64,000 bases of DNA from the IMG/VR virus record IMGVR_UViG_3300013383_000248. The stretch is one strand, 5' to 3'. The notes beneath the pieces are model-generated. The model was not told the origin of the DNA. It ran no database searches and worked only from the letters and a program-made list of their open reading frames with translations. The position numbers and the translations under genes were made by a program. Shown piece after piece: positions 362 through 64,000 of the stretch. This DNA is from a virus. Within the stretch, counting starts at the first letter, position 1; the number at the start of each line of letters is the position of its first letter.

Positions 362-1426
362 TTGATAAAATTAGATTATACTCTTGAAACTCCTGAAGAA
401 CGAAATGAATTAGTAAAAAAAATTTTAGAGGAAAATCCAAATCCTAATGAAAAGTATTTAGAAATCCTCGCAGATTATCTAATTCTATGTATGGAGAAAC
501 AAGAAAAAAAAGAAAAGAAAATATTAACTGATAATAGATTAATGACAGTTAATAAGCGTGAAACTTCTTTTGAGGGTCTTGTTTCCTAGTTAGAGAATGG
601 TGAAGATGGTATATATAATTTAATTAATAGTGATAAAAATATGATATTTTAGCCAAAAGTTACAATTACAAAAAAAGATTTAGAAGAAATTCCTAGCTTA
701 AAACAATTAAAAGATGCTATTACAACTTGGGAAGCAAAAATGAAAGTAGTGAGTGGCAAAGATGCTTTCACTATAAAAAGAGCCTTGATAGAAATGCGCA
801 AAGACCAATATGTTATTAAAAATGCTTATCGAAAGCCAATAGTGCCGGTTAAACTTACTCGGTCTAAATATAAAATTAGACTAGACGAAGATGTAAAAGT
901 ATTTGATGATGATGGATATCCAATTCCAGAAGGCGTCTCATTAATGAATCCTGAAATTTGCTCTTGCATCTTATGTAATTATTCACGATTAAAAGAAGAT
1001 AGTTGGGACCGTTTTGAAGATGATACTTGGTATCTTATCTATGATTTTGAAAACACTTGCGATGAAGCTTTGGCTGAGTATCCTATGTTAATGCGTATTG
1101 TAGAATGTAAAATTGATGGATTGCAAAATGTAGAAATCCAAAAAGTATTACAAGAAGAATTTAATATTACTCATAGCTTAGAATATATATCTAGTTTATT
1201 CCGTAATAAAATTCCAAAGCTTATTGCCGATAAAGCTGTTGATAAATATTTAGAGTGGTATTATACAACACAAGAAAAAGGTAAGTATAAAAAATGCAGT
1301 CGATGCGGGCAAATAAAGTTAGCCCATAACAAGTATTTCTCTTTAAATAAAACAAGTAAAGATGGATTTTATAGTATTTGTAAAAAATGTCGAAATAGTT
1401 CTCGTAAAGAAAAAATGAAATCCTAA
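362..1426 (+). CDS. hypothetical protein (~354 aa) with C-terminal Cys4 zinc ribbon (CSRCG...CKKC); possible late regulator
   Basis: TTG start 8 nt after GGAGG. Joins tracked ORFs 161..589 and 740..1426 (same frame) across in-frame TAGs. No TAA/TGA until 1424-1426. Confidence 0.5.
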
Positions 1427-1444
1427 TGAAAGGAGAAATATTTA

Positions 1445-2659
1445 TTGTCTAGCGAAGGTAAACAATATTATTGTGAAAAATGTAATAAAACTATGGATGG
1501 AACTTAGTTTTATACATCAAATAATTTAGATAAGTATCCTAACGATGGCAAATTACCCCAATGCAAAAAATGTATTACAATGCATGTGGATAATTGGAAA
1601 CCAGATACTTATTTATGGATATTGCAAGAATGTGACGTTCCCTACATCCCTGATTAGTGGAATTAGTTAATGGGTAAATTTGCTAAGGATAGAGCGAAAG
1701 TTACTGGAATGACAATTTTAGGTCGCTATCTCTCAGCAATGAAATTAAATCAATGGAAAGATTATAGATGGAAAGATAGTCAATTCTTACAAGATTTACA
1801 AAATAAAAAAATAGAAGAGACAATGAAGCAATAGGGCTATGATGTATAGGATATAGCTACTGCTATTCAACGTGCTTCATTTGCTTTACCGACAGAAGAA
1901 CTTAAAGAGCCACCGGCCCCTACTCCTCCCTCTCTAGATTTTGGGAATCAACAAGAAGATTATTTTAAAGATAAATTGGATTTTGATATACCTGACCTAG
2001 GGGCAGAATTGACTGACGAAGATAAACGATATTTATATTTAAAATGGGGTAAAGGCTATAGTCCAGATGAATGGGTTCGCTTAGAGCAACTGTTTAATGA
2101 AATGATGTAGTCTTATGATATTTAGTCAGCAGGCCATATTGATACATTAAAACTTGCTTGCAAGACATCATTAAAATCTAATCAATTATTAGACATAGGT
2201 GATGTAGACGGCGCTCAAAAGATGATTAAAATGTATGATTCTTTAATGAAGTCTGGCAAATTCACAGCTGCCCAAAATAAAGAAGAATCTGGTGATTTCG
2301 TTGATTCTGTTGGTGAATTAATAGAAATGTGTGAGAAACAAGGTTATATTGAAAGATATTATATTGATTCTCCAAATGATAAAGTAGATTTTACAATTAA
2401 AGATATGCAGAAATATACCCGTACTTTAATTGAACGAGAAACTAATCTTGGCAATATGATTGATTAGGCATTAAAACAAAACGCTAAAGAAGATGAAGAA
2501 GCCAAAGAAAACGTCGAAGATACAATTGTTGATGATGTTGATATGTCTATTGAAGATATCGAAAAAACTTTGGAAGATAAAGATATTGAAGACTTTAGTG
2601 AATTTTTAGATAACGAGACAGAGTTAGATATAGATGCTTTCTCTGATAGAGAAGATTAA
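1445..2659 (+). CDS. hypothetical protein (~404 aa), N-terminal CxxC...CxxC zinc ribbon, acidic C-terminus; positional candidate for terminase small subunit
   Basis: TTG start after AAAGGAGAAAT. Frame is continuous with tracked ORF 2222..2467 through multiple TAGs. Ends TAA at 2657-2659, overlapping the terL ATG. Confidence 0.45.
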
Positions 2660-4410
2660 TGGCATTACAAGATTTACTTGACTTATCTACTAGTCGGAAA
2701 AAGATAGGTCTTTCTGAAGAACGTATTAATGCTGTAATGCCTATTATTCGTAAATATACTGCCTTTTGGCGTGAATATCCAGATTTATTTGTAGATTTTT
2801 TAGTGCGAGGAACGCGTACAGAGCCAAAAGAGGGAGAATTTAGATTCTTCTTTTATTAGCGTGTGTTCCTACGATGTGTAATGCGTTATCAATATGTTTA
2901 CGCAGTTTTCCCTCGTGCTTATTCTAAATCATTCTTATCAGTTATGGCTTTAATGGTTAGATGTATTCTTTATCCTGGAGTTCACTTATTTGTTACTTCT
3001 GGTGGTAAGGAATAGGGTGCTAGTATTTTGCATGATAAAGTTAATGAACTTTGTGATTTAATACCTAGCTTCAGGCGTGAAATTGACTGGGGCCGTGGTA
3101 AGAGCCAAGAGAGTAAAGATAAAGTACGCTATGTATTTAAAAATGGCTCTGTTCTTGATAACTTAGCTGCTAGAGAAAGCACTCGTGGTCAGCGTCGTCA
3201 TGGTGGCTTGATGGAAGAATGTGTAGGTATTGATGATTAGATTTTGCGTGAAGTCATTATACCAGTTATGGCAATTCCTCGTAGAGCTAAAGATGGTACA
3301 ACCCATGAAGAAGAAGCAGTTAATAAATCTCAGATTTATATCACTACTGCTGGTTATAAGAATACTTATCCTTATGATAGACTAATTGGTTTATTGGTTC
3401 GTATGATTACTTAGCCTGATAGATGTATGGTATTAGGCGGGACTTGGCGAACTCCTGTAGCTGTTGGCTTACAATAGAAAACATTCATTACTGACCAAAA
3501 GAATGAAGGAACTTATAATGAAGCTTCTTTTGAGCGTGAATATGAATCTATTTGGTCTGGTACTGTTGAAGATGCGTTCTTTAATGCGGAAATATTTAAT
3601 AGAAATAGAATATTGAATTAGCCTGAATATGAGGCTTCTGGCCGTTCAAGTAAATTATCTTATTATATATTAAGTGTTGACGTAGGCCGTAAAGGATGCG
3701 ATACTGTTGTTTGTGTATTTAAAGTAACGCCGTAGCCGCATGGTGAACCAATTAAGAGTTTAGTTAATATTTATACTATGAATGATACTCATTTTGAAGA
3801 TTAGGCTATTAAGCTTAAAAAATTATATTATAAATATAAAGCTCGTAGAATTGTAATAGATGCTAATGGTTTGGGCGTTGGCTTAGTAGATTTTATGGTT
3901 AAGCCTTAGATCAATCCTGAAACTTCTGAAGTAATTCCTGATTTTGGAGTTTATGGTGGAACTTAGGATGATGCGGTTTAGGAATATAAAAAATATAAAA
4001 CCAATAGTACAGAATTAGACGTTTTATATTTGATGAAAGCTAATGCACCAATTAATACAGAAGCACACAGTATTACTTAGTCAGTATTAAATTCTGGCAA
4101 GATTAAATTTTTAATTGATGAACGAACTGCTAAATAGAAATTATTAACTACTAAAGTAGGTTAGAATATGACTACTGAAGCTCGTTCTGATTATTTAAGA
4201 CCTTTTAGTTTAACCACTTCATTGCGTGAAGAGATTATGAATTTGCGTGAAGAGAATGAAGGTTTAAATATTATTTTAAAACAAGCTAATAAAAGTATTA
4301 AAAAAGATAAATTCTCTGCATTAGAATATGGTTTATATTATATAAAAAAAGTAGAAGAAGATAAAAAGAAGAAAAAATTCCGGGCTGCTGATTGGATGTT
4401 TATGAATTAA
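2659..4410 (+). CDS. terL: terminase large subunit (~583 aa)
   Basis: Tracked ORFs 2659..2859, 3028..3240 and 4168..4410 are in one frame. Hand translation through ~12 in-frame TAGs is continuous, with an ATPase region (YAVFPRAYSKSF, RRHGGLMEECVGIDD) and an RNaseH-like nuclease region (ILSVDVGRKGCDTVVCVF, IVIDANGLGVGLVD). Confidence 0.85.
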
Positions 4411-4419
4411 GCCGGGCAA

Positions 4420-8167: not shown

Positions 8168-8944
8168 ATGCTTTTAAAAGATATGCTTAAAGACCTAAGC
8201 GGCGTATCTGCTGTTAAGGGCGGTTACGTTGAATATGGCTATGGTCAGGTTGAGCCTAATCATTTAAGTGCTCAGCGCACTGGTCAGATTTATGCTCAGT
8301 TACCTGCTAATAAAAATATCCAGCTTCTTGAAAATGGCCAGTTTGTTAAGTATGACTATGCTGCTGGTGAGCTTGGTGAAGTTGATTTCACTGGCAAGGG
8401 CGAATGGATGTTAGTTTATAATGAGATTAAACTTTATCGTGAGGAACAGGCCGATTGCGAATTTGCTATGCGCAAGGACGATTATTAGGCTCGTTACTAC
8501 AGCCCATATGATGGCAAGCAGGAGATTGGCACGCGTCAGGCTCGTTACCTAAACGGCAAGGATGCTGCTGGTAATACTTCTATAACTATTAAGGATAGCC
8601 AGGGTGTAGAACATACTTATGAATATGATGATGTTACTGCTGGTCCTGATATCCGTGAACTCTTCTATGAAGAAGATCCTTTACATTTCGATGGTCCTTA
8701 TGAGGCCCGCAGAATGCCTGCTGGCACTAATATGGTTCCTCGTGTTTTAAAGACCAATGTTGGTGATATTTTTACGACTAATACTATTGCTGAAGCTACT
8801 CTTGTAGTTGGCGATATTTTAAGCCCTCGTGCTACTGACGGTATGCTTTCTAAGTCTGGTGATGGCTCTATCCAGTGGTAGGTTGTTAAGGTTTATGAAA
8901 TGCCTGACCATCAGAAGGGCGTTAAGATTATGCGAATCGCGTAA
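8168..8944 (+). CDS. head structural protein (~258 aa; decoration or minor capsid)
   Basis: AAGGAGG RBS. Higher GC and only 2 TAGs, suggesting a highly expressed gene. Immediately upstream of the putative major capsid gene. Confidence 0.4.
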
Positions 8945-8961
8945 GAAAGGAGAGAAGAAAA

Positions 8962-10098
8962 ATGTTAGATAGAAAAAATCTTGTTCAATTAATGAAGACT
9001 GTCGCTAAGGCTGATCCTTCTACTCCTACTGCTTACAGCTTTAATGGCGAAAGCCTTTCTTATGATGCTCTTAATGAAACTCTCCGCAGAGAATTAAATG
9101 AACTTGCTGGAACTTATTCTCTATATCGTGATAATAAGAACCTTATTTTCTCAATGATTGAGGAAACTATTGATGAAGTTCTTCCTAAGAAAGTTGAAGA
9201 GCAATATAATCAGTTTGCTGAAGTTAAGACTTTCAAGCAGGGTGACAAGCCCATCTTCCGCAGAAAGTTCAGCAATAATACTCGTGCAAAGCAATTCATT
9301 ACCCGTGTCGGCCTAGCTGGTATCTATGAAGTATTCAAGCTTGGTAAGACCGAAGAAAGCTTTGAAGTCCGTACAAGTGCTATCGGCGGAGCTGCTCAAA
9401 TTGGCTTTGAAGAGTTCCTTGATGGCCGTGTCGATTTTGGTACTGTCACCCAGATCGTTATGGAAGGTATGGACGAGCTTATCTATAAAGAGATTGCTGG
9501 TGCATTAAAGGCCTCTATTAACCAGTTACCTCCTGCTAATCGTGTTGTTGGTAATGGTTTTGATGAACCCGCGTTTGATAAGTTACTTATGATTGCTTCT
9601 GCTTATGGTACTCCTACTATTTATTGCACATATGAATTTGCTGTTCGTATGATTCCGAAGGATGCTTGGCGTTATACTGAAGCTATGAAGAATGAGCTTT
9701 GGAACACTGGCCGTCTTGCTTCTTATAAGGGTTATAAAGTTGTTATCCTTGAGCAGGGATTCGAAGATGCTACCAATGAAAAGAAGGTCATTGACCCAGG
9801 TTATGCTTGGATTATTCCTACTGGTGCTGATAGTAAGCCTGTAAAGGTTGCTATGGAAGGCAATACCATTGTTGATGAATATACTAATTATGACCGCAGC
9901 CGTGAAATTTAGGTTTATAAGAAGGTTGGCGTTATTGCTATGTTAGCTAATAACATCTGCTGCTACTGTGATACCGAACTTCTTGGCGATATGAAGACTT
10001 GGCATCTTGATGGTGTAACTGGTAAGGTCCGTGATTATGCTGGCCAGATTACTGGTTCTCACGACACTATTGATGGCGGAAATGAAGATACTCCGTAA
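8962..10098 (+). CDS. putative major capsid protein (~378 aa)
   Basis: GAAAGGAGAG RBS. A single in-frame TAG, high GC, followed by a strong terminator. Size and position fit an HK97-fold major capsid protein. Confidence 0.55.
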
Positions 10099-50343: not shown

Positions 50344-50407
50344 AGCAATCCCTCCTTAAATTTAAAAATATATATACCTATTATATTTAGTGTTTCTTTA
50401 TTATAGA

Positions 50408-50992
50408 TTAATCATTCTTGCCTAATTCGGCATACCAAAAATGGTCTGTGATTTCAGCTACAATATTTTTTAAATCATTTCTATCTTCATTTACAAATAT
50501 TTTTACATCATTAAATTTTATATTATTAAAATCTTGTTCATCAGCCGCATAACGTCTAATAATTTCTGGAACGTTGGGTGATTCTTCTCTATTCAGTTGA
50601 CGTAATAATCTTTGTTCATCTGAAGCTACAATACCATAAATCTTTAAATCAATTTCTGGAAACGCAGATAAAGCTTTAATTCCAGAAGGATTAAAGATAC
50701 CGATATTAAGTTTATTCTTTCTTAAACAGTTAATACCAGTTCCATACCACCAATTATTAAATTGAACATATTCCAGCATTTGATGATTATCTATCATTTG
50801 TTTAAATTCATTTTCAGTAACAAAATAATAATCTTTTCCTTCAACTTCTCCTTCACGGCCCGGACGAGTAGTGTAAGAAACTATAGAATGAACTATAGGA
50901 TTATTTAATTTTTCTATTTCCTTTAATATGGTGTCTTTGCCTGAACCGGCTTTACCCACTAAGGCGATTAATTTATATTTTTTATTCTTCAT
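50408..50992 (-). CDS. gmk: guanylate kinase-like (194 aa)
   Basis: Tracked ORF with a GKAGSGKDT P-loop and the YTTRPGREGEVEGKDYYFV motif. Confidence 0.8.
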   Translation of the reverse strand: MKNKKYKLIALVGKAGSGKDTILKEIEKLNNPIVHSIVSYTTRPGREGEVEGKDYYFVTENEFKQMIDNHQMLEYVQFNNWWYGTGINCLRKNKLNIGIFNPSGIKALSAFPEIDLKIYGIVASDEQRLLRQLNREESPNVPEIIRRYAADEQDFNNIKFNDVKIFVNEDRNDLKNIVAEITDHFWYAELGKND

Positions 50993-52443
50993 CTTCAGCT
51001 TCTCCTTGGGAACGGTTATTTCTTAATACTAAATCACCATTAGATTGAATTCCATCAATGTGATAAAGTTGATGTCCGGCTGTTGATGCATACTTCTTAA
51101 CAATAAAATCATCTCCAGAACGGATGCCTTGGACTACAATCATATTACCGCGATTAAACCAAGATTTTTCAATAATTTTTTTAGTTCCATCAGGTTGTTT
51201 TTGAGAAATTTGTTTGTCAAACAATGTAAAATATTCTTTTCTGAACTTTACATTTACTACTCCTGTTGGAGTAAGAATAGTTACAATACTCTTATTCTTA
51301 TTTTTAGCGATACAAGTGCCGCACAACTTAGAAAGATAATAAATATTTATTGTTTTTCCAGCCTTAATAAAGCTTCTTTCTACGACTGGGTCTTCTGGAA
51401 GTTTATAGAAATCAACAAATCCATATTTACCTTGATTAACTTTTGCTAATTCATGTTCGTGGTAATAGAAACATAATACTTCCATTTCCCACGCAGAATA
51501 ATTTACTTTAGGACAATATTTATCCCAATCCATTTTAAATACAATTTCATTTAATTTATTTAAAATTTCTTCTTTATTATCAGCAATTTGTTTACGATAA
51601 ACATCCATCCATCCTTGGTAAACCTTATCATTCCAATCCTTAATATTTAAAAAGAAATTAGAATTATTGCTTTGGATTAAGTCATCTTTATCAATCTTTT
51701 GTAAAAATCCAATAGCTCTTTCATCTAGTTTATAATTAACTTTATCATATTTACAAATTTGTTTTAAATAACGAGTAAATTCATAAATATGTAAAGCCTG
51801 TTGTCTTTCATCTGTATCTGCTGGAAGAAGATTTAATTTCATTAAAGTAGCTAAATTTTGAAGATTAAGATTTTTCTTTTTATCACAAGTTTCCCAAATA
51901 TACCAAGCCATACAAAGTTTTCTATCCATCATATGGTCAAAAGCCCCACCCTTGATAAGAGAAATCATAGCTTGTTTATTAGGATTAACTTTATTTAAGA
52001 AATCTCTAGGAGAGATATAAGGTCTGTTATCAATAATTGTGCGAACTACATCATCACCAACATTTAGCATACCTTTTAAGCCGAACAGAATTTGATTATT
52101 TTCAACATCAGGGATAAAACTAAATTCTGATTTATTAATATCAGCAAGACTTACTTTAATACCAGCCTTACGAATATCACCAATGGCCTTAGCAATTTTT
52201 CCATAGTCAGTAGAATTAGTTTTTCTTACCTTAGATTTTTTATCAGGTAAATCTTCAAAAGTAACTCCGTTAGCTAAATCATCAGCTTCTGGATCATAAA
52301 TATCTACTATTTCTTCTTCACTATTATCTTCTAAAGAACCACTATTGACAATTAAACAAGCACAATTCCAGTAGATAGGATTGTAATGAATAACAAAATA
52401 AATCATTTGAATAGCTACAAATGAATAAGGGAGTGAGTGATTA
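50982..52443 (-). CDS. dnaE: DNA polymerase III alpha subunit (DnaE), exon 2 (C-terminal ~486 aa)
   Basis: Begins ...NHSLPYSFVAIQMIYFVIHYNPIYW, aligning with E. coli DnaE ...[24 protein letters not shown]. No ATG or RBS of its own. TAA at 50982-50984. Confidence 0.85.
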
Positions 52444-53626
52444 CGTATACTCTGACTATTTCTTACGGACTTTGTAGTGAAAGTGGTAAATTTTCTCGTC
52501 CGCACACCATTTCCAACAACGTGTCAATAGTTGTTGTACTCCAAGTCTAACCTTGGATAGTCGATACAATAGATTAAAAATAAAGTTATTTTTTCCTTAA
52601 AGGATAATTTAAATTATCTTTTTTATGAGAGCGGCCAGTATTTATATTGGTTACTGTAGATCTTGATTTATTATATTTTTTAGCAATTTCATTTTGAGTT
52701 AAATTAGTATTTAATAAATCATTAATAATTTTATTAACCCAAATTTCATTAGCTTTTTTGTTACATCCTTTTATATATAAAGGATAAGTTTCATTTTTAT
52801 CAAAAAAATATCTACCACTATTAATACCAGAAATAAAACCAATACTTTTAATATTAAAATCTTTTGCTATTGTTTTATAAATTTCTCCAGACTTTATTCT
52901 ATCTTTAATTTGTTTTATTTCTTCTTTAGAGAAATGGCTTCTATTTATTTCTTTTTTTAAAGGATAATCAAATAAAGGATTTTTAAAATTTAACCCGCTA
53001 TTAATATTTATAAGATATGAATACTTTAAACGTGGAGAATATTTTTTTAAAATTTCATTAAAATCTTTATTGGCTATTAATAAATTCTGTATATTAATAA
53101 TTTCATTTCCAGTAAATAGTTTTGAAGATTGTAATTTTTCTTTATAAGTTTTTTCCTTCGGAGAAAATCCTTGTCCTCCTTGAGAAACATTATATCCATT
53201 TAAAGAAATTAAACTTTGATATTGTTCTATATAATATTTTTCTTTATCATCTATATAATTTTGGTCTTTACTATCATCAATTTCTTCTAATATAATAAAA
53301 TCAAAATTATTTAATCCATATTTTCTAATAGCATTATGGAATGGTATATTATAATCATTTGATTTAGGATTAAAAGAACAACTTTTATGTCCATTTTTTC
53401 TTTTTTGGATATTATTTGTTTGACCAATATAAATCTTCCCATTTATTTTATTTTCGTATTTATATATATATTTCATTTTTGCACCTCCTTATAATCTATT
53501 TCTACTTTTAATCTATCACGAGATTTTACCCTCGTTAGCAATTAATTTTATAATACTACCAATATTATAATGTAAATTAATTACCCCTATGACGAATAGG
53601 TTAAGTGTGTAAGCCCCAATCTCTCA
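52444..53626 (-). mobile_element. group I intron (~1183 nt) in dnaE carrying a GIY-YIG homing endonuclease gene
   Basis: Exon 1 ends ...AGCCU (53627) and pairs with intron GGGCU (P1, U.G at the splice site). The intron ends in a G at 52444. Splicing gives GYAFS-L-NHSLPYSF, collinear with E. coli [14 protein letters not shown]. Intron flanks are GC-rich and structured; the homing endonuclease gene has its own AAGGAGG RBS. Confidence 0.7.
52586..53476 (-). CDS. GIY-YIG homing endonuclease (296 aa), intron-encoded
   Basis: Tracked ORF: MKYIYKYENKINGKIYIGQTNNIQKRKNGHKS.... C-terminal NUMOD/HTH-like repeats. No TAG codons. Confidence 0.85.
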   Translation of the reverse strand: MKYIYKYENKINGKIYIGQTNNIQKRKNGHKSCSFNPKSNDYNIPFHNAIRKYGLNNFDFIILEEIDDSKDQNYIDDKEKYYIEQYQSLISLNGYNVSQGGQGFSPKEKTYKEKLQSSKLFTGNEIINIQNLLIANKDFNEILKKYSPRLKYSYLININSGLNFKNPLFDYPLKKEINRSHFSKEEIKQIKDRIKSGEIYKTIAKDFNIKSIGFISGINSGRYFFDKNETYPLYIKGCNKKANEIWVNKIINDLLNTNLTQNEIAKKYNKSRSTVTNINTGRSHKKDNLNYPLRKK

Positions 53627-56169
53627 AGGCTAAAAGCATATCCTAACTGCGGTGCTACTGCTGTTTCCCAAAAATATTCTGCATCACTTTTATTATTAAA
53701 ACGACTAAATACCTGTTCCTTTAATTGAGGAATCTTAGCCATTTGTTTTTTAGCAACAACTTTACGTGCTGAGTTAGCTTCACCTAATGTAAAATGAGCT
53801 ATATCCATAAGGATTTCCATCATTTGTTCTTGTAAAGGGCAACAACCATAATATTTATCACAGTGTTTATGAAATTTATTAATAAGTTCTTGAGGCAAAT
53901 GATGTTGTTTCATTTCTTGATCAAAGGCTTGGATACCTTGGTGTTGAATTCGATAAAATCTATCTTGTTGTGATTCTTTACCTTTTTCAGACATAAGACG
54001 CATCATAGCATTAGCCGCAGTCATTTCCATAGGGTCTTGCGGTTTTAGTTTTTTGGCAATAGCTAATCCTACACCAGTAGAAAACTGGAAACAGTCTAAT
54101 ACATCGCCTGCTGCAAGATGGTCCCAAATATTTTGGTCTTTTGTATCTATTACTTCTGGATGAATATATTGATTATAAAATTCTCTTAAAGATAAATCAG
54201 GAATTTCTTTTGCCTTTAATAGTAATTCATAACAAGTAATAATCTTGTCAGAAGCTTCAGTCACAAGGAAATCATATTTAGTATCTCCAGCTGCTTCCGC
54301 CTGATGCAAATCCCAGCAAGTAATTAAATTACCACTAGGCGTTCTCATAAATGCTGCTGTATCATAAGGATCATCCCCATAAAGAATAACGCCAGAAGCG
54401 TGAGAAGAACGTTTATTAACAATACCGCCAATATAAATAATTATATCAAGAAGTCCTGGATATTCATTTACTTTATTAATAAATGTTTTAACAGGCTTTC
54501 TATCTTTGGCTTCATTACCATAAATAACATCGTCAATTTCCCATAAGAATCCACGTTCTTGCGGGATAAGAGAAGACATATACTGTGCTTCATCTACGTC
54601 AATACCATTTGGATATTCTTCTGACCTATAACCACGACAAGCAGTGAGAATAGCAGATTTAGTAGTTTCAGTGCCAAAGGTAGCAACCTGAATTAATCCT
54701 AATTCTCCACGTTCTTTGCGAATAGCTTCAAAAATTGCAGGACGTTTTGAAGGAGCTAAGTCAATATCAATATCAGGTAATTCAGCACGTTCTTTGTTTA
54801 AAAAACGCCAATAAGGGAGACCCCATCTTATAGGATCAAGCTGAGTGATACCTAATAAATAGTTAGATAAAAAACCAGTGGCCGAACCACGCCCTGGACC
54901 TACTATAGAGCCGCAATTCCAAAACAAATCAATATAATGTTTAAAAGTATTAAAGTAAGCAAAAAGGCAATCATCTAATTTTTCACCAATATCTTTTATA
55001 ATATCAGCTTCAATTTCAAGACGATTTAAATATATATCAAGTTTATCTTCAGAGATACTTTTATTATACATCTTTTCCAATAAAGACATATAACATTCAT
55101 TAACCCAATAACGTTCTTGAGGATTATCACTCATTAATAAACTACATAAAATAGGATATTGTTCTTCACGTTCACCATACCATCCAGCCAATGATTGAGG
55201 ATAATCTGTTACTTCTACTTTTGGAATTATTTGTTTTCTTTCAAGAGAGAAATCTTCAATTTTATTTTGAATTTCAAGAGTATTATTTAAAATTTCTTTA
55301 GCTATTTCTTCTGGCTGTTCTTCTATGTCTAAATATATAAAACAAGGTTCAATTAATTTAAAAACTTCATCATAAGTCATTAAATGAGCGAACTCATAGA
55401 ATTTATCAACTTCTCGTTCACCGTCTTTTGAATTAAGATAAGCTTTATGAATTGGTCTATCTTCTTTAGTTAGATAATGACTGTCTGTAGCAACTTCTAC
55501 TTTAATTCCATATTTACGGCCAATTTTATAAATCATATGATTTACAAGTTTTTGGTCTGCCGCTGTTGATGGTGCAATCTCTAAATAAAAATCTTCATCA
55601 AATAAATCTTGGCAAAAAGTAAGAAAAGTATCTATTTGTTTTAATGTTTGATATAATTCATATTTATTTTCTTGTTCTTGGTATTCTACTGCTTTTAATA
55701 AACAAGTTCCTAACTCTCCACCAATACAAGCAGTAGTAGCGATTAGATGTCCTTTATATTTTTCTACTATTGGCTTTAATTCACTCTTTAAAAGTGGAAC
55801 TCGTTCCATTTTTCTATCAACATATAAATTTTGCCAAGCAATTGAACTTAATTCTTTTAATGCTCGATAGCCTATAGCATCTTTAGCAATTAAAATAAAA
55901 TGATAATATTTTTGTCCTGTACTTCTATCATCAGTTAAATAAATTTCATTACCTAATGCTATTTTAAAATCTGGATATTTTTCTTTAATTTTTTTAGCAT
56001 ATTGATTTACTGTCATATGTGCAGAAAGACTTTCGTGGTCTGTAATAGCGATTCCCGAAAGTCCTAATTCAATAGCCTTATCAATTAAAGTTTCTGGTTT
56101 ATTTATGCAATCAAGTAAACGGAGGTTCGAATAATCAGTATGATTATGGCAACCAAAATAAGTACTCAA
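53627..56169 (-). CDS. dnaE: DNA polymerase III alpha subunit (DnaE), exon 1 (N-terminal ~847 aa; PHP, palm, fingers)
   Basis: TTG start 7 nt after GGAGG. N-terminal PHP motif HNHTDYS. The tracked ORF 53587..56169 runs 13 codons into the intron. Confidence 0.85.
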
Positions 56170-56236
56170 TTCCCTACCTCCTTAATTCTATTATTTTCTG
56201 TAAATATTATATCATATAATTCTATCAAAATCAATT

Positions 56237-56428
56237 TTAAAAATCATCTATATCATTAGCGATTTTATTTATCATAGCAGCCAATTCAATTAAATTCTAC
56301 CTATACGTTGATAAATTATTTTTTAATTTTTGGTTTTCACTGAATAAATAAGAAATCTGATTTTCATTCTATTGCTACTGTTTTTCTAATTCATTACCTA
56401 GCTAATTAAGTAAATTTTGTATTTCCAT
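56237..56428 (-). CDS. small coiled-coil Gln-rich protein (~63 aa)
   Basis: ATG overlaps the upstream stop (TAATGG); 9 in-frame TAGs (QQQQ run); TAA at 56237-56239. Confidence 0.3.
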
Positions 56429-57027
56429 TATCCTATAATCTCCAAATGATAATCATTCTTTTCATTTAAACAATCCAAAAGAGTATAAAACAGACTATGA
56501 TAATAAGGCGGAACCCACTCTGGTGATAAACAAATAAAATACTTATCATAAGAATCAGTAAATTTAAATTCTTTAAATGGTATTTTATTATATTTAAAAT
56601 TTACTTCAAAATTTGGGTCACAAGAATTATCATTATGAACCCAAGTGTAGTCTTTCAACTGCCCTTGGTCGTGAAAATATTTAACCCAGTCCGCACAATT
56701 ACATTCTTCTAATTTTTTATCTTTATCTTTAATATCATAAAAAATATCGTGATGATGGTCTATATTAGTAATATTTAAGTTGGTATCATTTTTTAAATAA
56801 TCTTGAATAAATGAATGACTATAACTAATAAAAATAGAAGAAGTTTTATCTATAGTTCGTAATAAATATCTAAGTATTTTAGAATAAATATTTAAATCAG
56901 CAGGTGTAGTGGTAAGATTGGGTAAACTCTTTAATAAATCATCCCAATGATTTGCTGGCACCATGTTATTATATAAATTAATACTTGGTGCCATAATAAT
57001 GTCAAAATCTACGCTTAATACATTCAT
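56428..57027 (-). CDS. hypothetical protein (199 aa)
   Basis: Tracked ORF; ATG start confirmed. Confidence 0.5.
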   Translation of the reverse strand: MNVLSVDFDIIMAPSINLYNNMVPANHWDDLLKSLPNLTTTPADLNIYSKILRYLLRTIDKTSSIFISYSHSFIQDYLKNDTNLNITNIDHHHDIFYDIKDKDKKLEECNCADWVKYFHDQGQLKDYTWVHNDNSCDPNFEVNFKYNKIPFKEFKFTDSYDKYFICLSPEWVPPYYHSLFYTLLDCLNEKNDYHLEIIG

Positions 57028-57094
57028 ATATATATTATTTCCTTATAACAACTAATTTTTTACTGGCTCTAGTAATACCAGTATATAAATATTT

Positions 57095-58153
57095 CTAATG
57101 GTCTAATTTATTAAAAGGATGTACTTCTTCAATTAATAATACCTTATCCCATTCACTGCCTTGTGCCTTCCAAACTGTTATAGCATAAGCATAAGCAAAG
57201 TAATAAGGAGCTTCTAAAGCATCAGAATTTCTAGCAAAACTATTCATTCTAAATTCTTGTTTTTTATCAAAAGCTTGCTCTCCTGTAAGTAAAGCATCAT
57301 AATCAATTGGAATAGATTCAAATCTTCCATTTCCAATATCCATACCAGTAAACATATATTGCAATTCTTTATTATAAATAAAGCTTGGATAATGATAAGG
57401 AACTATTTGATAATTAGTAATTGTCCCAATAGACCCATTAGTGAGTGGCCATAAACCATTAGTGGAGATAAAATCCCAATGATTGGTTAATCCTATGATT
57501 TTATCTCCTATTTCTGGTATAGGTCCTCGACCCTGTCTTTCTCGAACTTTATTATTTATTTCAATACGTTTCTTATTAGAGGCGCATAAAGTTTGGTCTG
57601 CCCATTCATACATTTCAGGAATAAGTTCATAAGGTCTTAGAATTTGAACTTGTTCTTTGGCTACTGGAAATTGCCCCAAGGGCTTACCTTCACGCACCCA
57701 CATAGATAAACGAATAATTTCACTATCTTGTGCTTGCCGCATAATTTCATCTAGAAAGATATGTGGTTTATCTAATACATGGTTATCTTCATTTTGATCT
57801 ACAGGAGGAAGCTGAAAAGGGTCACCACAGGCAATTACATATTTATGATGGGAAAGAAGTAAATCCCACATTGTTTTAGGCAGCATTGATATTTCATCTA
57901 CAATAATTACTTTATATGGGATAGGCCATCTTTTTTTTAAATAAAATGTGCCGTTAGGTCTCGGTTTAGCTTCATACAATAATTTATGTGCTGTAGTTGC
58001 ATTAGGGCATCCTTTTGTTTGAAGAACGGTTGCTGCTTTACCAGTATAAGCCACATAAGCTACATCAGTTTCAGGATTCAAATTTAATGATTGAACTATG
58101 AATTTTACTAATGTAGATTTGCCTGTGCCAGTTAAGCGTAGCCAGCAATACAA
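57095..58153 (-). CDS. RecD/Dda-like SF1 DNA helicase (>=352 aa)
   Basis: Walker A TGTGKST, Walker B VIIVDEISM, GDPFQLPPV, and C-terminal VWKAQGSEWD motifs. Start is unclear (TTG at 58153; no ATG, no SD). Confidence 0.8.
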   Translation of the reverse strand: MYCWLRLTGTGKSTLVKFIVQSLNLNPETDVAYVAYTGKAATVLQTKGCPNATTAHKLLYEAKPRPNGTFYLKKRWPIPYKVIIVDEISMLPKTMWDLLLSHHKYVIACGDPFQLPPVDQNEDNHVLDKPHIFLDEIMRQAQDSEIIRLSMWVREGKPLGQFPVAKEQVQILRPYELIPEMYEWADQTLCASNKKRIEINNKVRERQGRGPIPEIGDKIIGLTNHWDFISTNGLWPLTNGSIGTITNYQIVPYHYPSFIYNKELQYMFTGMDIGNGRFESIPIDYDALLTGEQAFDKKQEFRMNSFARNSDALEAPYYFAYAYAITVWKAQGSEWDKVLLIEEVHPFNKLDH

Positions 58154-58186
58154 GTATAAGATTCGTGGCTCTTGTATCTGGCTACG
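58137..58186 (-). promoter_or_regulatory. 16-bp interrupted stem-loop spanning the helicase translational start region
   Basis: CGTAGCCAG(CA)ATACAAG with a 16-nt loop, pairing to CTTGTAT/CTGGCTACG; read directly. Confidence 0.4.
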
Positions 58187-58213
58187 GCAATTTTCAATCC
58201 AGCATTTTGTTTA

Positions 58214-58639
58214 TCAGTTAGTGTCAAGCGGATTTACTTCTCCTTTCCATATAAATTTATCATTTTCAAAAACCACTTTCATTGGTTTTTCTTGAGCTGT
58301 GGGAATGATATAAACATAATCTTCAGTAAATGGCATTTTAAATCTAGTATCACCATTTTCATCAAAAATTTCTAAATCGTATTTTTGATTTGAACCTTCG
58401 GTTTCTGCATCTGTACTCGGTCGGAGCTAAGCCATTTTTTTATTACCCTTGCCGCCTCTAATTTCATAAATATCACAAGAAGTAGTTTTATTAAGCTCAG
58501 TGAGTTTAGCACTTAATTCTTTAATTGCTCTAGTAGCTTCTTCAGCAGAAATACCAAAACTACCCCAAGAAGCTATTTCTTTTACTAATTCATTAAATTC
58601 ATCTTCATTAAACAAAGTATTTGTAAGCTATTGTGGCAT
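58214..58639 (-). CDS. hypothetical protein (~141 aa), same frame as the helicase and separated from it by tandem TGA-TAA
   Basis: ATG near 58639, inside the C-terminus of the upstream gene. Reads through 2 TAGs. Ends ...GEVNPLDTN-TGA-TAA. Confidence 0.4.
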
Positions 58640-59333
58640 ATTGTTGTCTAACGTAATTTGATTGCGATAATCCTCTTTCATAACATTTCATAAAAGCTAA
58701 AGCAGCTTCTTGCTCGTTCTCCAATTCTAAAAATTTTTCAAAATTAAAATTATTTGAATAACAAAAACCAAACATATCAATTTGATATTTAATATCATCA
58801 CGAAGAAAATCCATTTGACCTTTTAAATCTGCTCCCCATACTCTATCAGTAAATACTTGATTCCATTGGCATAATCCATAAAATCCATTGCCATAAATGG
58901 TAGTTTGCAAATCTAATGTCCCACCGCCAACCTCAGCCATCATATTACCTAAAATACCAGCACATACATAATCATTCCAGCCAAGATTTTTCATATATTC
59001 CCAAATAAGAGTAGCATCTTTATATTCAAGTCCATCTAATTCTTCATCAACTTTATCTAATTGATTTTGATAGAATTTAATAATTTCATTATAAAAATGC
59101 CATTTACCTTTAAGATTCATAATTACATCACTATCATCAGTATAACCGATTAACCGAGCATTATTAGCATTATTATGAATTTCTTCTTTTTTTAAAGTAT
59201 ATTCATCAATTAAATTGATAAGTTCCCAATAATTATTAGTTTCTTTTAAGGGAGTATATTCAACAGTTATTGCATTAACATTAATAGTTAAAATTAAAAG
59301 GATACTAATAATTATAATAATTTTTGTTTTCAT
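58608..59333 (-). CDS. secreted lysozyme-like protein (241 aa; signal peptide; phage-tail-lysozyme-like domain)
   Basis: Tracked ORF. N-terminus MKTKIIIIISILLILTINVNA looks like a signal peptide. YVCAGILGNMMAEVGGG and GLCQWN resemble the AGIMGNxxxESG / GxxQW motifs of tail-lysozyme domains (recalled from memory). Confidence 0.5.
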   Translation of the reverse strand: MKTKIIIIISILLILTINVNAITVEYTPLKETNNYWELINLIDEYTLKKEEIHNNANNARLIGYTDDSDVIMNLKGKWHFYNEIIKFYQNQLDKVDEELDGLEYKDATLIWEYMKNLGWNDYVCAGILGNMMAEVGGGTLDLQTTIYGNGFYGLCQWNQVFTDRVWGADLKGQMDFLRDDIKYQIDMFGFCYSNNFNFEKFLELENEQEAALAFMKCYERGLSQSNYVRQQYATIAYKYFV

Positions 59334-59350
59334 ATTTTTCTCTCTATCTA

Positions 59351-61091
59351 TTAAAAATAATATTTTACATTTTTAGTAACATGATAATCAGTAATAAAAA
59401 TTTCTGGATTAGTTTTTCCTAAAAATTCATTTATTTTACAAATACCAATAATATCAACAATTATACAGCCTGTTTCACTATGTAAATAATTATATTCTTC
59501 TTGATTAACATTAAATTTAATTAAATCTAAATCATTTGGTAATTTAATTTTTAATGTTCCAGTAGTTTCTTTAGGATAATAAATTACATTATTATTAGTA
59601 AGTTTTAAATTTTTAATAACTATATATGGTTCTTTAAAATTCTATCCCCACAAAGGTTCAAACTCTGGTATTTCTAATATAGTATTTATATCAATATTAT
59701 TACTATCAAAAATATAATCAGCTAAATAAACTGGCTAACCATCATAACCATATAATTTACTATTTGTATCTCTTATGAATTTTCTTATATTATTATCAGC
59801 AATTTTCGCACCAAATGCTCCTTGATGACCTTCTGCAAATTCAAAATATCCAGTAGAATTAAGATAAGCTTTAAAATCTTTTATAGGCTCAAAAAATTCA
59901 TACCCACGACCAGATCCTTCCCAGTATTTAATTCCATTTTCAATTACTTCATTAAGTATAAGAGTCGGCTTCTAAAATCTATTAGCAAATTCATTTGCTA
60001 TTAATCCAGTTAAATTTTTATTTACTTCATATTTTTTATCCAACTAAACAACTAGAATTTTATCATTTAATAAACCTTGTTCTTCAATTAACTTTTCTAT
60101 TATTTCAACATTGGCATCACGGATTTTAGTCTATCGTGTTTTTACATTACCACTAACGCGACATGCCTGTTCTACAATAGTTTCAGCTTGTCCTCTGCAT
60201 CCTCTTTTGGTTGATGGAATTAAATCATAGGCAAGAAAATCTAACATACTCTAAAATACTACTTGTCGTTCATCAGTTTCTCCAACACGAGTAACTGCAT
60301 TAATGAGTGGAGCAATATAGAAAGCGACACCCATAGGAGTTAAAGTTTCTTTTAATTTAAATTTATTTTTTTCCATCATACCTTTAATATAAGGATTTTG
60401 AGGATTCTTTAATCCTTGATTAATAAAATATCGAGTTTCATAAGGCCTACTATCCATCATATCGCCGATTAATCCAAGAGCTACTAAATCTAAATATTTA
60501 TTTGAATAATTAGTATTAAGAATTTCATCAATAGCATTACAAAATTTATAAACAATAGCGACGCCAGATAATGCTTTATTAGGATAGTTATCTAATTGAT
60601 TATTAATTACACAAGCATAAGGAGAAATTTCATCTGCTTCATGATGATCTAAAATTAATATATCAATACCCTTATTATAAAGTGCTTTATGTTCTTTATA
60701 CTAATTACTTCCTGCATCAGGAATTATTACTAATTTAGTATCTTCTGGAATAGTATCTAAAATAATACCGTGAGTTTTCTAGATATGAACTCTATAATAT
60801 ACATTATTAGATACATAATAAGGGAATAAATCATATAAATAATTAATCAGCAATGCTGAAGATGTATAACCATCGCAATCAGCATCTACCTAAATAAAAA
60901 TTTTATCATTTTGTTTAATATGTTTTAATAATAATTTAATTCCCTATTCTATATTATTTAATAATTTATTGGGATATACATCAGATTGTGTGGGATTAAG
61001 AAAATGCTAAATATTCTCAGTCTTAATCCCACGATTATTCATTATTGTTTCTAATGGAGTTTTTTGTGTATCATTAATTAATTTATAATTC
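59351..61091 (-). CDS. recJ: RecJ-like DHH-family ssDNA exonuclease (~580 aa)
   Basis: Hand translation through ~12 TAGs: VDADCDGYTSSALL (DHH motif I), IPDAGSN, LDHHE (the DHH motif itself), GVAIVYKFC, LGLIGDMMD. AAGGAG RBS; TAA at 59351-59353. Confidence 0.85.
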
Positions 61092-61104
61092 ATATACTTA
61101 CTCC

Positions 61105-61473
61105 TTATATAATAATTCTTTCTTTATATAATTTAAGAAATAAATCTGGCCCTTCATCAGTTGGACTATCCTTATAATTAGTAAGCATATTCTTATCAAA
61201 AATAAAAGATATGTTAAAATAATTTCCATACTTAGCCTTTATTTTTAATAAGTTATTTTTTAAATGATAAAATTCTTCATCACCTATTTTTTGGAATTGT
61301 CTATCAAAAGCAATAATAATATCTTTCGCACCGACTTGCTCTAATAATTTCATTTGCTGAGCCGATACGCTGCTGCCGCAACAAGCTACCGTTATATCAT
61401 TTTCAAAACCAAAATAACTTTGATATTGTAAGGTTGACTTTTCCATATAATCCATTATTTCTAATGGTACTGA
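61105..61473 (-). CDS. dnaG: DnaG-type primase, exon 2 / C-terminal TOPRIM part (~122 aa; 5' boundary uncertain, 61455-61482)
   Basis: ...LEIMDYMEKSTLQYQSYFGFENDITVACCGSSVSAQQMKLLEQVGAKDIIIAFD... is TOPRIM-like. The frame is open upstream of the tracked ATG, through TAG codons. Confidence 0.7.
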   Translation of the reverse strand, partial: SVPLEIMDYMEKSTLQYQSYFGFENDITVACCGSSVSAQQMKLLEQVGAKDIIIAFDRQFQKIGDEEFYHLKNNLLKIKAKYGNYFNISFIFDKNMLTNYKDSPTDEGPDLFLKLYKERIII

Positions 61474-62455
61474 CTATATCTTCCAACTACTAATTATAGT
61501 TGCCACTGTTTCGAGATATGTACCAATAATATCTCTACTCCCTTTAACAGGATAGTCGATACAGGTTATCTATTTTTCCACATCTATTTTGCTCCTACTG
61601 AATGATTATTTCTTAGAGGATAATTATATCCATCAAGCCTATAAGATTGAGTTTTTCCATTTATTATATCTGAAATAGTGGAAGAAGAACAATTGAACAT
61701 TTTTGCTAATTCTTTTAAATTTTTATCATTTTTTAAAATTTCTTCATGAATTTTTTTACATTCTTCAGGAGAAAATTTTAATCCTTTAGTGCCTTTAGCT
61801 TTATTAGAACGAATAGGATATTTAATTCCAGACTAAGGTCTTCGTGCTCCAATATTTATATTGTATATGTGAGTTAGTGAAAATCCAGTTTTTTCACTTA
61901 TTTCTTTAAAAGAATATTTTTCATTCTTTAAATACTCAATAACTTCTAATATTTTTTTATCTTCATACATTGGTTTAACAGGATTTTTTCCACCAGTTGA
62001 TTGATTATAACCATTAAAATATGTATCATAATATTTTATCCAATATTTTTCTCTATTGTCTAATTCTTCAAGTGGAACATTTTCTTCTAAAACTATTAAT
62101 TGATACTCTTCTTCTCCATATTTTCTTATCCCTCGACTTAAAGGATAATCATACTCTGCTTTATTCATATTAAATGGGTCATATTGAATATGCTATTTAT
62201 GTCTATTTTTTAAGTTATTAGTTTGACCTACATAAACAATTTTACCATTACTTTTTTTCTTATAAGCATAAATTACATTCATAAAATCAACTCCTTTTCT
62301 CACTATTATATGAAAAATGAAGTTAGATGTTTAAATAGATTTTCCCACGGAACCACCTTGAATTTAAAAAAATTTTTAGGCTCCTCCGTTAGCTTGTTAA
62401 AAATAACAAACCCCATTGGTAAATGGTAAAGTGGACTAGGGCGAAACTTTCTTTT
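61474..62455 (-). mobile_element. probable group I intron (~980 nt) in the primase gene carrying a GIY-YIG homing endonuclease gene (3' splice site uncertain)
   Basis: Exon 1 ends GAGGGU (62456) and pairs with downstream GCCCU (62442-62438) as P1 with U.G. The upstream reading frame decays after IIFEG (the TOPRIM EG). The ATAGTCAG motif near the 3' end is shared with the dnaE intron. The C-terminal piece has no RBS. Confidence 0.5.
61833..62282 (-). CDS. GIY-YIG homing endonuclease (~149 aa)
   Basis: MNVIYAYKKKSNGKIVYVGQTNNLKNRHK-Q-HIQYD..., where the RxxxH Gln is a TAG. AAAGGAG RBS. The tracked ORF 61833..62168 is its C-terminus. Confidence 0.75.
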
Positions 62456-63220
62456 ACCCTCAAATATTATTGCTTTTCCTATCCTATTTATATTTGCTTT
62501 ACTATTATTTAAATTATATAAATTCATACCAAGAGGATGAGAATAAAGAATCTTATTAATTTTTAATGGTCTATATTTGCCATACAATAGAGCTTCCTCT
62601 TTTCCTAACACTCTTCCTCTTAGTCCTATAAAATTTCCATCTATGTCAAAATGAGGAATTGTAATAGCATCGCCGCCAGGGTAATAACCAATTATTGCTT
62701 GGTCTATCGCCTCTTGGCTTATTCCTTCTTTTAGCCACGGAGTTAATTTTACACAATAATTAAATCTACTTAAAATTTTACTATCATAAGTTTTTAATTC
62801 AACTTTAGAATTTAAATTTTCTTCTATGTTATTCTTATCATAATTAGCTAAAAATTTCCAATCTTCTAAGCCTAAATCTTCAGCATCGTCTTCCACTGAA
62901 CCGGCAATACCAAAATAATTAGCTATCCAACGAACTGCATCATTTAGGTCATACTCTTTATTAGATTGGATATGAGCTACTTTAATTACTAATTCAAATA
63001 TATCAAATATATCATCACAGCCGGTGTAGCATTTAAATAATTGACTATTTGAATAGTAATAAAGTTTCTTACTTCCTGCTCCTGGTTCATTATGACAGAT
63101 AGTTTCAGAAAGGATACCGAATTCACTATATTCAGGATTACCGCCCCAAATATTTAGTAATTCAAAAATATTGTCTAAAGTTAAATTATTTTTTATCTCA
63201 GCTTTATCATAGTTAATCAT
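62456..63220 (-). CDS. dnaG: DnaG-type primase, exon 1 (zinc-binding and RNA-polymerase domains, ~255 aa)
   Basis: CHC2 zinc finger CHNEPGAGSKKLYYYSNSQLFKCYTGC. RNA-polymerase-domain motifs GYYPGGDAITIPHF, GLRGRVLG, KYRPLKINKILYSHPLGMNLYNL. Ends ...NRIGKAIIFEG, aligning with E. coli ...PNRLLVVEG. Confidence 0.75.
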
Positions 63221-63238
63221 TATTAACTTAATAAATTA

Positions 63239-63421
63239 TTAGAATGTAATTACATTAATACAAGTGCCTTTAATACCAAATTCTTCATTAACTACTTTAA
63301 TAAGGTATTCCTTTGGATGTTTCTTTGCAAATTCACCCTTAGCAGTCTTTAGATACATCGCTGCCATTTCCTTCGGCATCTTATATTCAATAGTTCCATT
63401 CATAATATCTTTGTTAAACAT
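63239..63421 (-). CDS. hypothetical small protein (60 aa)
   Basis: Tracked ORF. Confidence 0.35.
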   Translation of the reverse strand: MFNKDIMNGTIEYKMPKEMAAMYLKTAKGEFAKKHPKEYLIKVVNEEFGIKGTCINVITF

Positions 63422-63437
63422 AATTTAATCTCCTTAT

Positions 63438-64000
63438 TTAAAAAGCGCTATCTTCAGCAATTCTAATTTTTACATTTTCCATATCTACTAATTCATAACT
63501 CCAATCAGTGCAAAAGATTGGAATAATACGACAGCAACCTAAATCAGCCTTACACCATAGATAAATTCCTTTATATTTACCTCGACGATTTTTATATACT
63601 GATAATTTTATTGTTGGACGTTCAAAAGTATTTGTTTCAAGTATTTTCTCTAACGATTGATAATCATTATCACGAGCTTGAAGAAGTAGCATACCTACGT
63701 CAATTTTATCTGCAATGGCTTTTGAACCACGCAGAACATTTTGGTCTGGCGTTTCACTATATTGATAATCAGCATTTAACTAAGTAGCAGACATAATAAA
63801 AATACCATATTGATTACAAATATCTTTTAATCTAGTAGAAAGCATAAAAAGGATATTATCTTCTCTTAATTTTACGCCGCCGCTTCGTTTACTAATTTCT
63901 TCAAGAATTTTCATACTTGTATGAATATAATCGTGAAATATGTATTTAACCCCGTGGTCTCGAATATTTTTCTTAATAACATTTTCTACATCCCGTAAAG
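63438..64000 (-). CDS. dnaB: DnaB-like replicative helicase, C-terminal part (gene runs past the window end)
   Basis: ...GIFIMSATQLNADYQYSETPDQNVLRGSKAIADKIDVGMLLLQARDND...VYKNRRGKYKG... matches the SF4 H3/H4 and C-terminal motifs. One in-frame TAG near 63780. Confidence 0.8.

Follow-up and report, generated by a model that had tools for sequence, protein, structure and literature searches.

Gene-by-gene avoidance of TAG glutamine codons in an abundant gut phage lineage, with early need and bulk production as likely reasons

Phages that read the stop codon TAG as glutamine are already described, as are their uneven recoding and a code-switch model to account for it (Borges et al., bioRxiv 10.1101/2021.08.26.457843, Nat Microbiol 2022; Babkin et al. 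2023, PMC10607447). Here, we analyse TAG usage, gene by gene, in a 64,000-nucleotide stretch of viral DNA, IMG/VR record IMGVR_UViG_3300013383_000248, called the window throughout. In many respects, it resembles the phages of Borges et al. TAG encodes glutamine (Gln) in an AT-rich phage with a predicted Firmicutes host of standard code, the recoding is concentrated in structural genes, and TAG is nearly unused as a stop. Similarly, replication genes are variable in their use of TAG, a few gene families are strongly biased, intron and homing endonucleases are recoded, and the degree of recoding differs widely among close relatives. The cases differ in that here the most abundant virion proteins form a distinct and conserved class that avoids TAG and is codon-optimised to CAG. 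Furthermore, as far as we checked, the window lineage belongs to none of the clades named by Borges et al. The phenomenon is known, then, while the phage lineage itself is undescribed and very abundant. What it adds is the CAG-optimised head and tail class with a TAG-free holin homologue, a set of TAG-rich nucleases, and the lack of a CUA tRNA in the window and in ~97% of the genome as known from close relatives.

A further point of comparison is phAss-1 (OQ749652), of the proposed genus Phassvirus, listed at NCBI in a 'Caudoviricetes code 15 clade'. Its 136-kb genome uses TAG as Gln in 28% of open reading frames (ORFs) and encodes 36 tRNAs, including three tRNA-Sup(CUA) (PMC10607447). Both it and the window phage are large siphoviruses with a tape measure of ~3150-3230 amino acids (aa), or 3149-3209 aa in phAss-1 relatives. 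They share the gene order large terminase (TerL), portal, head and tail, then replication genes in a convergent block that includes nrdDG, DnaE and RecJ. In both, a tRNA array precedes the replication genes and shares their strand. Conversely, the window lineage has ~187 kb and 11-13 canonical tRNAs, with no CUA tRNA detected and a far higher TAG share. Proteins are 41-49% identical to those of phAss-1 (TerL 41.6%), without a nucleotide match, short of the ~80% or more seen among Phassvirus members. Likewise, megablast against the INPHARED phages gave no match. The nearest cultured relatives are Geobacillus virus E3 and Enterococcus phage EF1 (TerL 44-47%, putative capsid 41%, tail structural protein 39-40% identical). 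EF1 has the standard code (PMC10607447), as do SPbeta-like and Enterococcus/Geobacillus large siphoviruses, unlike the window lineage. Such identities suggest kinship with phAss-1 and these siphoviruses at family level at most. An order of phages with Bacteroidota hosts has the same reassignment, mostly in late blocks, and intron-interrupted replication genes (PMC7886860; bioRxiv 10.1101/2022.06.29.495998; PMC9523058). For that group, proteomic proof that TAG is Gln exists (Peters et al. 2022, PMC9523058; PMC7886860; Mgcod). The order is unrelated, and the window is not recoded block by block but has TAG-rich genes interspersed with TAG-free ones in a single operon.

The window is the virion operon, plus the distal replication block, of a ~187-kb siphovirus. 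To judge from relatives, the host is probably a Clostridia-type Firmicute. The lineage is abundant in human gut metagenomes, and public data hold more than 1,700 near-identical fibre-protein sequences. Guanine-plus-cytosine (GC) content is 30% and there are two convergent gene blocks, on the plus strand (362-44198) and the minus strand (44241-64000). A strong bidirectional terminator hairpin, with a 17-bp stem and T runs on both strands, separates them (44203-44240). Coding-strand GC skew is positive to ~44 kb, and G is enriched on the coding strand of each block. With the standard code, ORFs of at least 150 aa cover 33% of the sequence. With TAA and TGA as the sole stops, coverage rises to 92%. 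Reassignment of TGA brings almost no gain (36%) and, when TAA is read as sense, ORFs merely merge without yielding a coherent gene set. The TAG, CAA and CAG counts for the window use a curated table of 53 genes, 50 of them complete, which agrees with independent public calls, aware of code 15, on a 99.94% identical ENA contig (L158). The complete genes end in TAA (44) or TGA (6), and never in TAG. At codon level, nine window genes were aligned with dereplicated orthologues (7-50 per gene). Opposite window TAG codons, orthologues have Gln in 59% of cases (CAA 28%, TAG 26%, CAG 5%), followed by Glu and Lys. The substitution profile is the same at window CAA sites (Gln 53%, Glu 16%). Hence, TAG evolves like a Gln codon. 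We conclude that TAG is reassigned to glutamine in the window phage, which uses genetic code 15.

Strong unevenness between genes, proposed in an initial annotation made from the letters alone, holds after curation. In total, there are 350 TAG, 466 CAA and 90 CAG codons. TAG makes up 46% of Gln codons on the plus strand (310/669) and 17% on the minus strand (40/237; Fisher odds ratio (OR) 4.25, p = 1.2e-16). Genes are heterogeneous when all are considered (G = 220.8, 51 degrees of freedom, p = 5e-23) and when the plus strand (G = 71.9, 28 degrees of freedom, p = 1e-5) or minus strand (G = 79.2, 22 degrees of freedom, p = 2e-8) is taken alone. For each of the three gene sets, 0 of 3000 permutations matched the observed heterogeneity. 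Correct calling did not, therefore, bring out a uniform TAG/CAA/CAG ratio. Out-of-frame TAG has a similar density in both blocks (0.025 versus 0.023 per position). Since the coding strand is also G-rich in both, the deficit is frame-specific and strand mutation bias is excluded. TAG has no positional bias along genes (Kolmogorov-Smirnov p = 0.69), the base after it (+4) is distributed like that after CAG, with nothing special about it, and TAG share does not correlate significantly with GC, or GC at third codon positions (GC3), across all genes. Outside Gln, the relative synonymous codon usage of TAG-free replication genes, TAG-bearing replication genes and bulk late genes is nearly identical (r = 0.97-0.98). 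Distinct codon-usage classes are found in the abundant head and tail genes (GC3 0.30) and in early-region genes (GC3 0.34).

Plus-strand genes use TAG and CAA at near parity (310 versus 290), and those for packaging and tail are TAG-heavy, as reported initially. The tape-measure-like ORF (3229 aa, 17520-27209) has 115 in-frame TAG codons, 53% of its Gln codons, alongside 87 CAA and 13 CAG. By calculation, 99% read-through at each TAG would be needed for a full-length yield of 31%. Hence, UAG decoding late in infection must be very efficient. The five large tail or baseplate-type genes that follow (27255-40818) have 16-21 TAG codons each (40-58% of Gln codons), TerL (2659-4410) has 14/22 and the portal gene 8/21. 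A Gln-rich small protein (41402-41833) has 8/19, though the run said to have TAG at six of eight Gln codons is AqqTqQqIQq, with five of seven. Low outliers are found on the same strand: the putative major capsid protein (378 aa, 1/11) and the neighbouring 258-aa decoration-like head protein (2/14, with 12 CAG), which together span 8168-10098, a scaffold-like protein (1/9), and a holin homologue (40832-41239; 0/10, p = 0.0024 against the strand rate). The two head genes are CAG-rich, with a GC content of 40-42%. Similarly, a virion structural protein and putative major tail protein (14097-15194; GC 39%) has two TAG and six CAG codons among ten. With 0/2 in the gene at 10197, the zero to two TAG codons first counted in capsid, major tail and 10197 genes are borne out. 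Because these head and tail genes are GC-richer and use CAG, translational selection on the most abundant products is indicated.

On the minus strand, the TAG-free status described for DnaE (0/56), gmk (0/6), dut (0/3), the DnaE-intron GIY-YIG endonuclease (0/11) and a lysozyme-like gene (0/11) is confirmed. High outliers are RecJ (11/23; 59351-61093), a RuvC-like Holliday junction resolvase (4/8; 44727-45233) and a free-standing GIY-YIG endonuclease-like ORF without an ATG start (5/7; 49893-50363). The primase, previously grouped with RecJ and RuvC as TAG-rich, does not belong there. Its exons have 0/11, and all three TAG codons (3/8) lie in a GIY-YIG endonuclease inside its intron (61566-62282). 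Nor does the RecD-like helicase lack TAG, as had been stated: there is one, at codon 264 of ORF 57035-57886, just before motif VI, and orthologues have two to four each. All TAG-rich minus-strand genes of known function encode nucleases. Annotated nucleases on this strand have 23 TAG in 57 Gln codons, compared to 6/144 for the others (OR 15.6, p = 7e-10), in a post hoc contrast. Note that RecJ starts 11 nt after primase exon 2 and ends 17 nt before the lysozyme-like gene, both neighbours being TAG-free. These gaps leave RecJ no room for its own promoter, so any delay would be translational. For annotation, neither a single-code nor a block-wise code model fits such genomes.

We collected ~110 loci of relatives using TerL, RecJ and ligase queries (TerL, the anchor, gave 80 related loci), and compared orthologues in ~50 relatives with a TerL identity of 62-98%. 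Gene by gene, TAG-free or TAG-rich status is kept across them. Pooled orthologues of the putative capsid have 6 TAG in 688 Gln codons (CAG 79%) and those of the 258-aa head protein 10/739, with CAG at 74-79% in both. Similarly low are DnaE (1/528), the lysozyme-like gene (0/106), gmk (0/44) and primase (11/311). RecJ (96/183, 52%) and phrog_4051 (343/686) are high, with TerL (424/1610, 26%) and portal (422/1474) between. Across the family, late-gene TAG share ranges from 2% to 51%, and CAG drops as TAG climbs. Together with the similar frequency of TAG and CAA, this is consistent with TAG having arisen from CAG through C-to-T changes under AT pressure. In phAss-1, with TerL ~41% identical, DnaE (0/59), NrdD (0/29) and the capsid homologue (0/15) are TAG-free, and RecJ (4/22) and an HNH endonuclease (5/9) bear TAG. 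Over 14 genes, the per-gene TAG shares of window and phAss-1 correlate (Spearman 0.61, p = 0.02). Since gene-specific TAG levels are conserved, TAG avoidance is under selection gene by gene.

The rest of the genome was pieced together from loci of relatives at least 93% identical, which cover ~97% of the ~187 kb, with ~5 kb unsampled. On the far side of the first late gene, outside the late operon, small genes of early or auxiliary type occupy ~45-50 kb (GC 33-40%). There, CAG makes up 44-66% of Gln codons and TAG 0-6%, and TAG ends 5 of 79 standard-code ORFs, two of these TAG codons being clearly internal. An early region almost without TAG, even as a stop, fits the published idea of host-readable early genes. 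Next is a ~6-kb tRNA array, interspersed with TAG-rich HNH and GIY-YIG endonucleases (9-10 TAG in 10-13 Gln codons). Radical-SAM and fibre-like genes with TAG follow, then auxiliary genes, PIN-PhoH (5/15), a CHAP-amidase endolysin (1/8) and a holin-like transmembrane protein (4/7). RNase H, gyrase B and A, and ligase come next (0/48 together; RNase H 0/5), with DnaB leading into the minus-strand block of the window.

We suggest, with a probability of roughly 60%, that a code switch combined with selection against TAG in two kinds of gene explains the unevenness. In most AT-rich genes, TAG would be an ordinary and nearly neutral Gln codon, with AT-biased mutation turning CAG into TAG or CAA. 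Selection would purge it from genes translated before, or independently of, a phage-induced change in decoding: the long early region, DnaE, primase, gyrase, ligase, RNase H, gmk and dut. It would also purge TAG from the most heavily produced virion proteins, codon-optimised to CAG, if TAG is costly in highly expressed genes. A naive host would translate the TAG-free genes, and TAG-bearing genes would wait for phage-induced decoding of UAG. Translation of RecJ, the resolvase and homing endonucleases would thus be held back, despite TAG-free neighbours, as would that of virion and tail genes. The enrichment of TAG in late genes, and its near absence from the early region of relatives, are as expected of a code switch, with exceptions both ways. 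If correct, this sharpens the picture to two separate reasons for shunning TAG, early need and bulk production. Moreover, for TAG-rich nucleases inside a mostly TAG-free operon, translation, not transcription, would do the scheduling. A sigma-70 consensus promoter scan did not resolve transcription units, finding 118 sites, compared to 136 in shuffled sequence.

Several observations weigh against this explanation. The putative capsid, decoration and major tail genes avoid TAG inside the late operon, which earliness cannot explain. Note that the capsid is putative, named only by position and size; searches of Pfam, PDB sequences and PDB profiles found nothing, and a single-sequence AlphaFold model was unusable (predicted local distance difference test score 43). 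The major tail protein is likewise putative. Conversely, NrdD (47715-49841, minus strand; 2/23, at codons 32 and 410), DnaB and the RecD-like helicase look early or middle, and need one to three TAG codons decoded. Since these are unavoidable, such genes cannot be read with the host code. No TAG occurs in the holin homologue, whereas Borges et al. found lysis genes to be preferentially, and most strongly, recoded. The DnaE-intron endonuclease has no TAG, unlike other endonucleases, and the nuclease contrast was framed only after the data were seen. The initial annotation had read the pattern as translational timing without a clean early/late split. The split is indeed not clean, and the unevenness, being neither a gene-calling artefact nor drift, fits its prediction that genes readable under the host code come first. 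The class of TAG-avoiding genes in the late operon, and the TAG codons in early-type genes, are what timing alone does not cover.

Could expression level suffice, without any timing? Competition from release factor 1 (RF1) would make each TAG costly, and TAG would be purged according to the amount or accuracy of protein needed. Avoidance in the late operon is indeed sharpest in the CAG-optimised, GC-richer head and tail genes, the holin homologue is late and TAG-free, and several replication genes tolerate one to three TAG codons. However, the essential 3229-aa ORF, with its 115 TAG codons, demands ~99% decoding or better at each, so the late cost must be tiny. Furthermore, DnaE, primase, gyrase and ligase, which are low in copy number and use ordinary AT-rich codons (r = 0.98), nevertheless avoid TAG as the capsid does, and RecJ, in the same operon, has 52% TAG. 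We therefore consider expression level alone unlikely. Somewhat less probable still is that TAG is kept in genes for DNA-cleaving or cell-damaging products, as a bar to their expression without the phage decoder. The purpose would be safety, during leaky early expression, abortive infection or transfer, and not scheduling. This would account for the TAG-rich RecJ, resolvase and two of three GIY-YIG endonucleases in the window, and for the tRNA-array endonucleases, PIN-PhoH and holin-like protein of relatives. An intron endonuclease was also preferentially recoded according to Borges et al. The contrast is post hoc and involves few genes, though, and RNase H, the DnaE-intron endonuclease and the window holin homologue are misfits. 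Harmless tail proteins, moreover, are just as TAG-rich.

It is very improbable that TAG-free genes were recently imported from standard-code genomes and have yet to accumulate TAG. In its favour, introns and homing endonucleases are mobile elements, GC content is aberrant (20%) in the TAG-free DnaE-intron endonuclease, and head genes and the early region deviate from the rest in GC. Nevertheless, TAG-free and TAG-bearing replication genes share their codon usage (r = 0.98), and the same genes are TAG-free down to ~41% TerL identity, ample time to equilibrate as RecJ did. On codon usage and conservation, we reject recent horizontal import. Finally, some first-pass gene calls were wrong, namely at the introns, at the endonuclease that lacks an ATG start and at the N-terminus of DnaE. 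That correct calls would make the ratio uniform is nonetheless scarcely conceivable, because the heterogeneity is highly significant after curation and public calls on the near-identical contig agree.

A code switch together with two-fold selection, the explanation we favour, also has to contend with the search for a UAG decoder. The initial annotation proposed locating a suppressor tRNA, and neither ARAGORN nor Rfam found any tRNA in the window. Similarly, ARAGORN and the Rfam tRNA model found no CUA tRNA in the ~97% of the genome covered by relatives, a further point against. No release factor or aminoacyl-tRNA synthetase gene was found in the lineage. The 11-13 canonical tRNAs of relatives are all in the single array. 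In phAss-1, two of the three CUA tRNAs are directly upstream of nrdD, and BLAST of its suppressor tRNAs against all loci of relatives gave no match. Most extra matches from relaxed ARAGORN runs were dismissed, being inside coding regions. In the window, the free-standing GIY-YIG ORF lies in the spacer before nrdD, the place taken in phAss-1 by two tRNA-Sup(CUA) genes and a tRNA-Leu. Suppressor tRNAs occur in only ~40% of TAG-recoded genomes (Borges et al., bioRxiv 10.1101/2021.08.26.457843). Hence, the missing CUA tRNA is not unprecedented, and the lack of a recognisable amber suppressor makes the code-switch mechanism testable in an abundant lineage.

One non-canonical tRNA in relatives has the ochre-type anticodon UUA (L138 18980-19053, and conserved in L135, L136, L148 and L149). 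Missed by ARAGORN at default settings, it reaches 48.5 bits with the Rfam tRNA model. U33 and A37 are present, as are an encoded 3' CCA and the T loop TGCGATT, and there are compensatory changes at pair 31-39 and in the T stem. The acceptor stem has G3.U70 and the discriminator position is A73. G3.U70 with A73 is the alanine identity set. Such a set does not match Gln. Were an ochre-reading tRNA active, backup stops might be expected after TAA, and these are not enriched (19/50 in frame versus 28/100 out of frame, p = 0.26). An apparent enrichment over genome-wide triplet frequencies was rejected as an artefact of AT-rich spacers. It is a long shot that the lineage achieves near-complete reassignment of TAG to Gln without any CUA tRNA, UAG being read by a decoder undescribed for code-15 phages. 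Candidates would be tRNA(UUA), reading UAG by wobble while RF1 is neutralised, a host tRNA that is modified, or an unusual tRNA, for instance one whose anticodon loop carries a 76-nt insert.

The tRNA gene with this insert (L138 16165-16310, also in L134, L136, L137, L139, L148 and L149) scores 42.7 bits with Rfam. The insert contains a T-arm-like hairpin of its own, and the gene is 94-97% conserved among relatives. A separate tRNA-like gene has G33 instead of U (L139 19606-19678, L135 17145-17215, L148 3804-3874). Its 'anticodon' varies among close relatives, AAA in some and AGA in others. Such variation suggests that it is probably a pseudo-tRNA or has a non-decoding function.

The late operon (362-44198, plus strand) was annotated using PHROGs and Pfam. 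It opens with a gene for a sigma-like factor, continues through packaging, head, tail and holin genes, and closes with small genes of unknown function. In order, the sigma-like gene precedes a gene in the TerS (small terminase) position, TerL (phrog_2 and others), an HNH endonuclease, portal, the scaffold-like gene, two head genes and connector-type proteins. Then come the virion structural protein (phrog_2729), which matches a 'virion structural protein' of Enterococcus phages, the tape-measure-like ORF, the five tail genes, the holin homologue and small genes. The sigma-factor-like protein (362-1426; phrog_5767), encoded by the first late gene, has a C-terminal zinc-ribbon or HNH-like tail. 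Its gene faces the divergent, GC-richer early region just past the window start, and its surroundings are probably the early/late control region. The holin homologue (phrog_13712, E = 2.6e-28) has an N-terminal transmembrane segment.

The minus-strand block (44241-64000) is the distal part of a long early/middle block for replication and nucleotide metabolism, annotated using Pfam. It encodes the RuvC-like resolvase (phrog_827, E = 1.4e-15), dUTPase, NrdG, the anaerobic ribonucleotide reductase NrdD (Pfam NRDD, E = 2e-173), the free-standing GIY-YIG ORF, guanylate kinase and DnaE with its intron endonuclease. These are followed by the RecD-like helicase, a secreted tail-lysozyme-like protein (Pfam Phage_lysozyme2; 58608-59333), RecJ (Pfam DHH and RecJ_OB), primase with its intron endonuclease, and the C-terminal part of DnaB. 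The true start of DnaE exon 1 (53626-56180) precedes the first ATG, and the PHP motif HNHTDYSNLRLLD lies near 56150. An intron of ~1.18 kb (52443-53625), holding the GIY-YIG homing endonuclease ORF (52586-53476), separates exon 1 from exon 2 (50982-52442). The junction, between ...GYAFSL and NHSLPYSF..., was set from intron-less orthologues. Primase (61105-63220) is split by a ~1.0-kb intron (~61438-62455). DnaE is uninterrupted in four relatives (L083, L084, L087 and L088; 1315-1333 aa), and L083, a close relative, also has an intron-less 367-aa primase allele. Uninterrupted alleles in close relatives prove both introns. Rfam found no family in the window, whether group I intron or tRNA.

The RecD-like helicase, of superfamily 1 (57035-58225), is broken inside Walker A by a stop and frame change at 58132-58134. 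The sequence reads IAGYA-TAA-CT-GGC ACA GGC AAA, and GTGKST follows on in the -1 frame. A stop occupies this codon in all relatives, mostly as TAA but as TGA in L082. Next comes CT, changing frame, in six sequences, and GCT or GTT, keeping the frame, in L087 and L086. Elsewhere in the gene, amino-acid identity among relatives is 75-96%. This suggests programmed read-through or frameshifting, or else a split gene. Under the long-shot reading of UAG decoding without a CUA tRNA, the conserved Walker A stop, with or without its frame change, would be a second recoding event using the same machinery.

A further interruption concerns a Gly-rich ORF (MFNTSNGYSL...GNGAW) in the plus-strand region 42112-43201. 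A stop ends its first part at 42216, and ~255 nt on the frame is taken up again as GWGGNGWGNGANGAGYQ, running into gene 42569-43201. The GC-rich spacer between looks structured and contains AAGATATAATCC. This spacer (~42216-42470) may be an ORF-less self-splicing intron, though Rfam returned no match for it even at E<=1.

Lastly, some relatives encode an 827-aa protein resembling major vault protein (MVP), with an MVP shoulder domain, together with a flotillin/band-7 protein (L155/L156 10001-12484; L140 2-1687). Both genes lack TAG and are rich in CAG, and more than 5,000 homologues of the MVP-like protein occur in public metagenomes.

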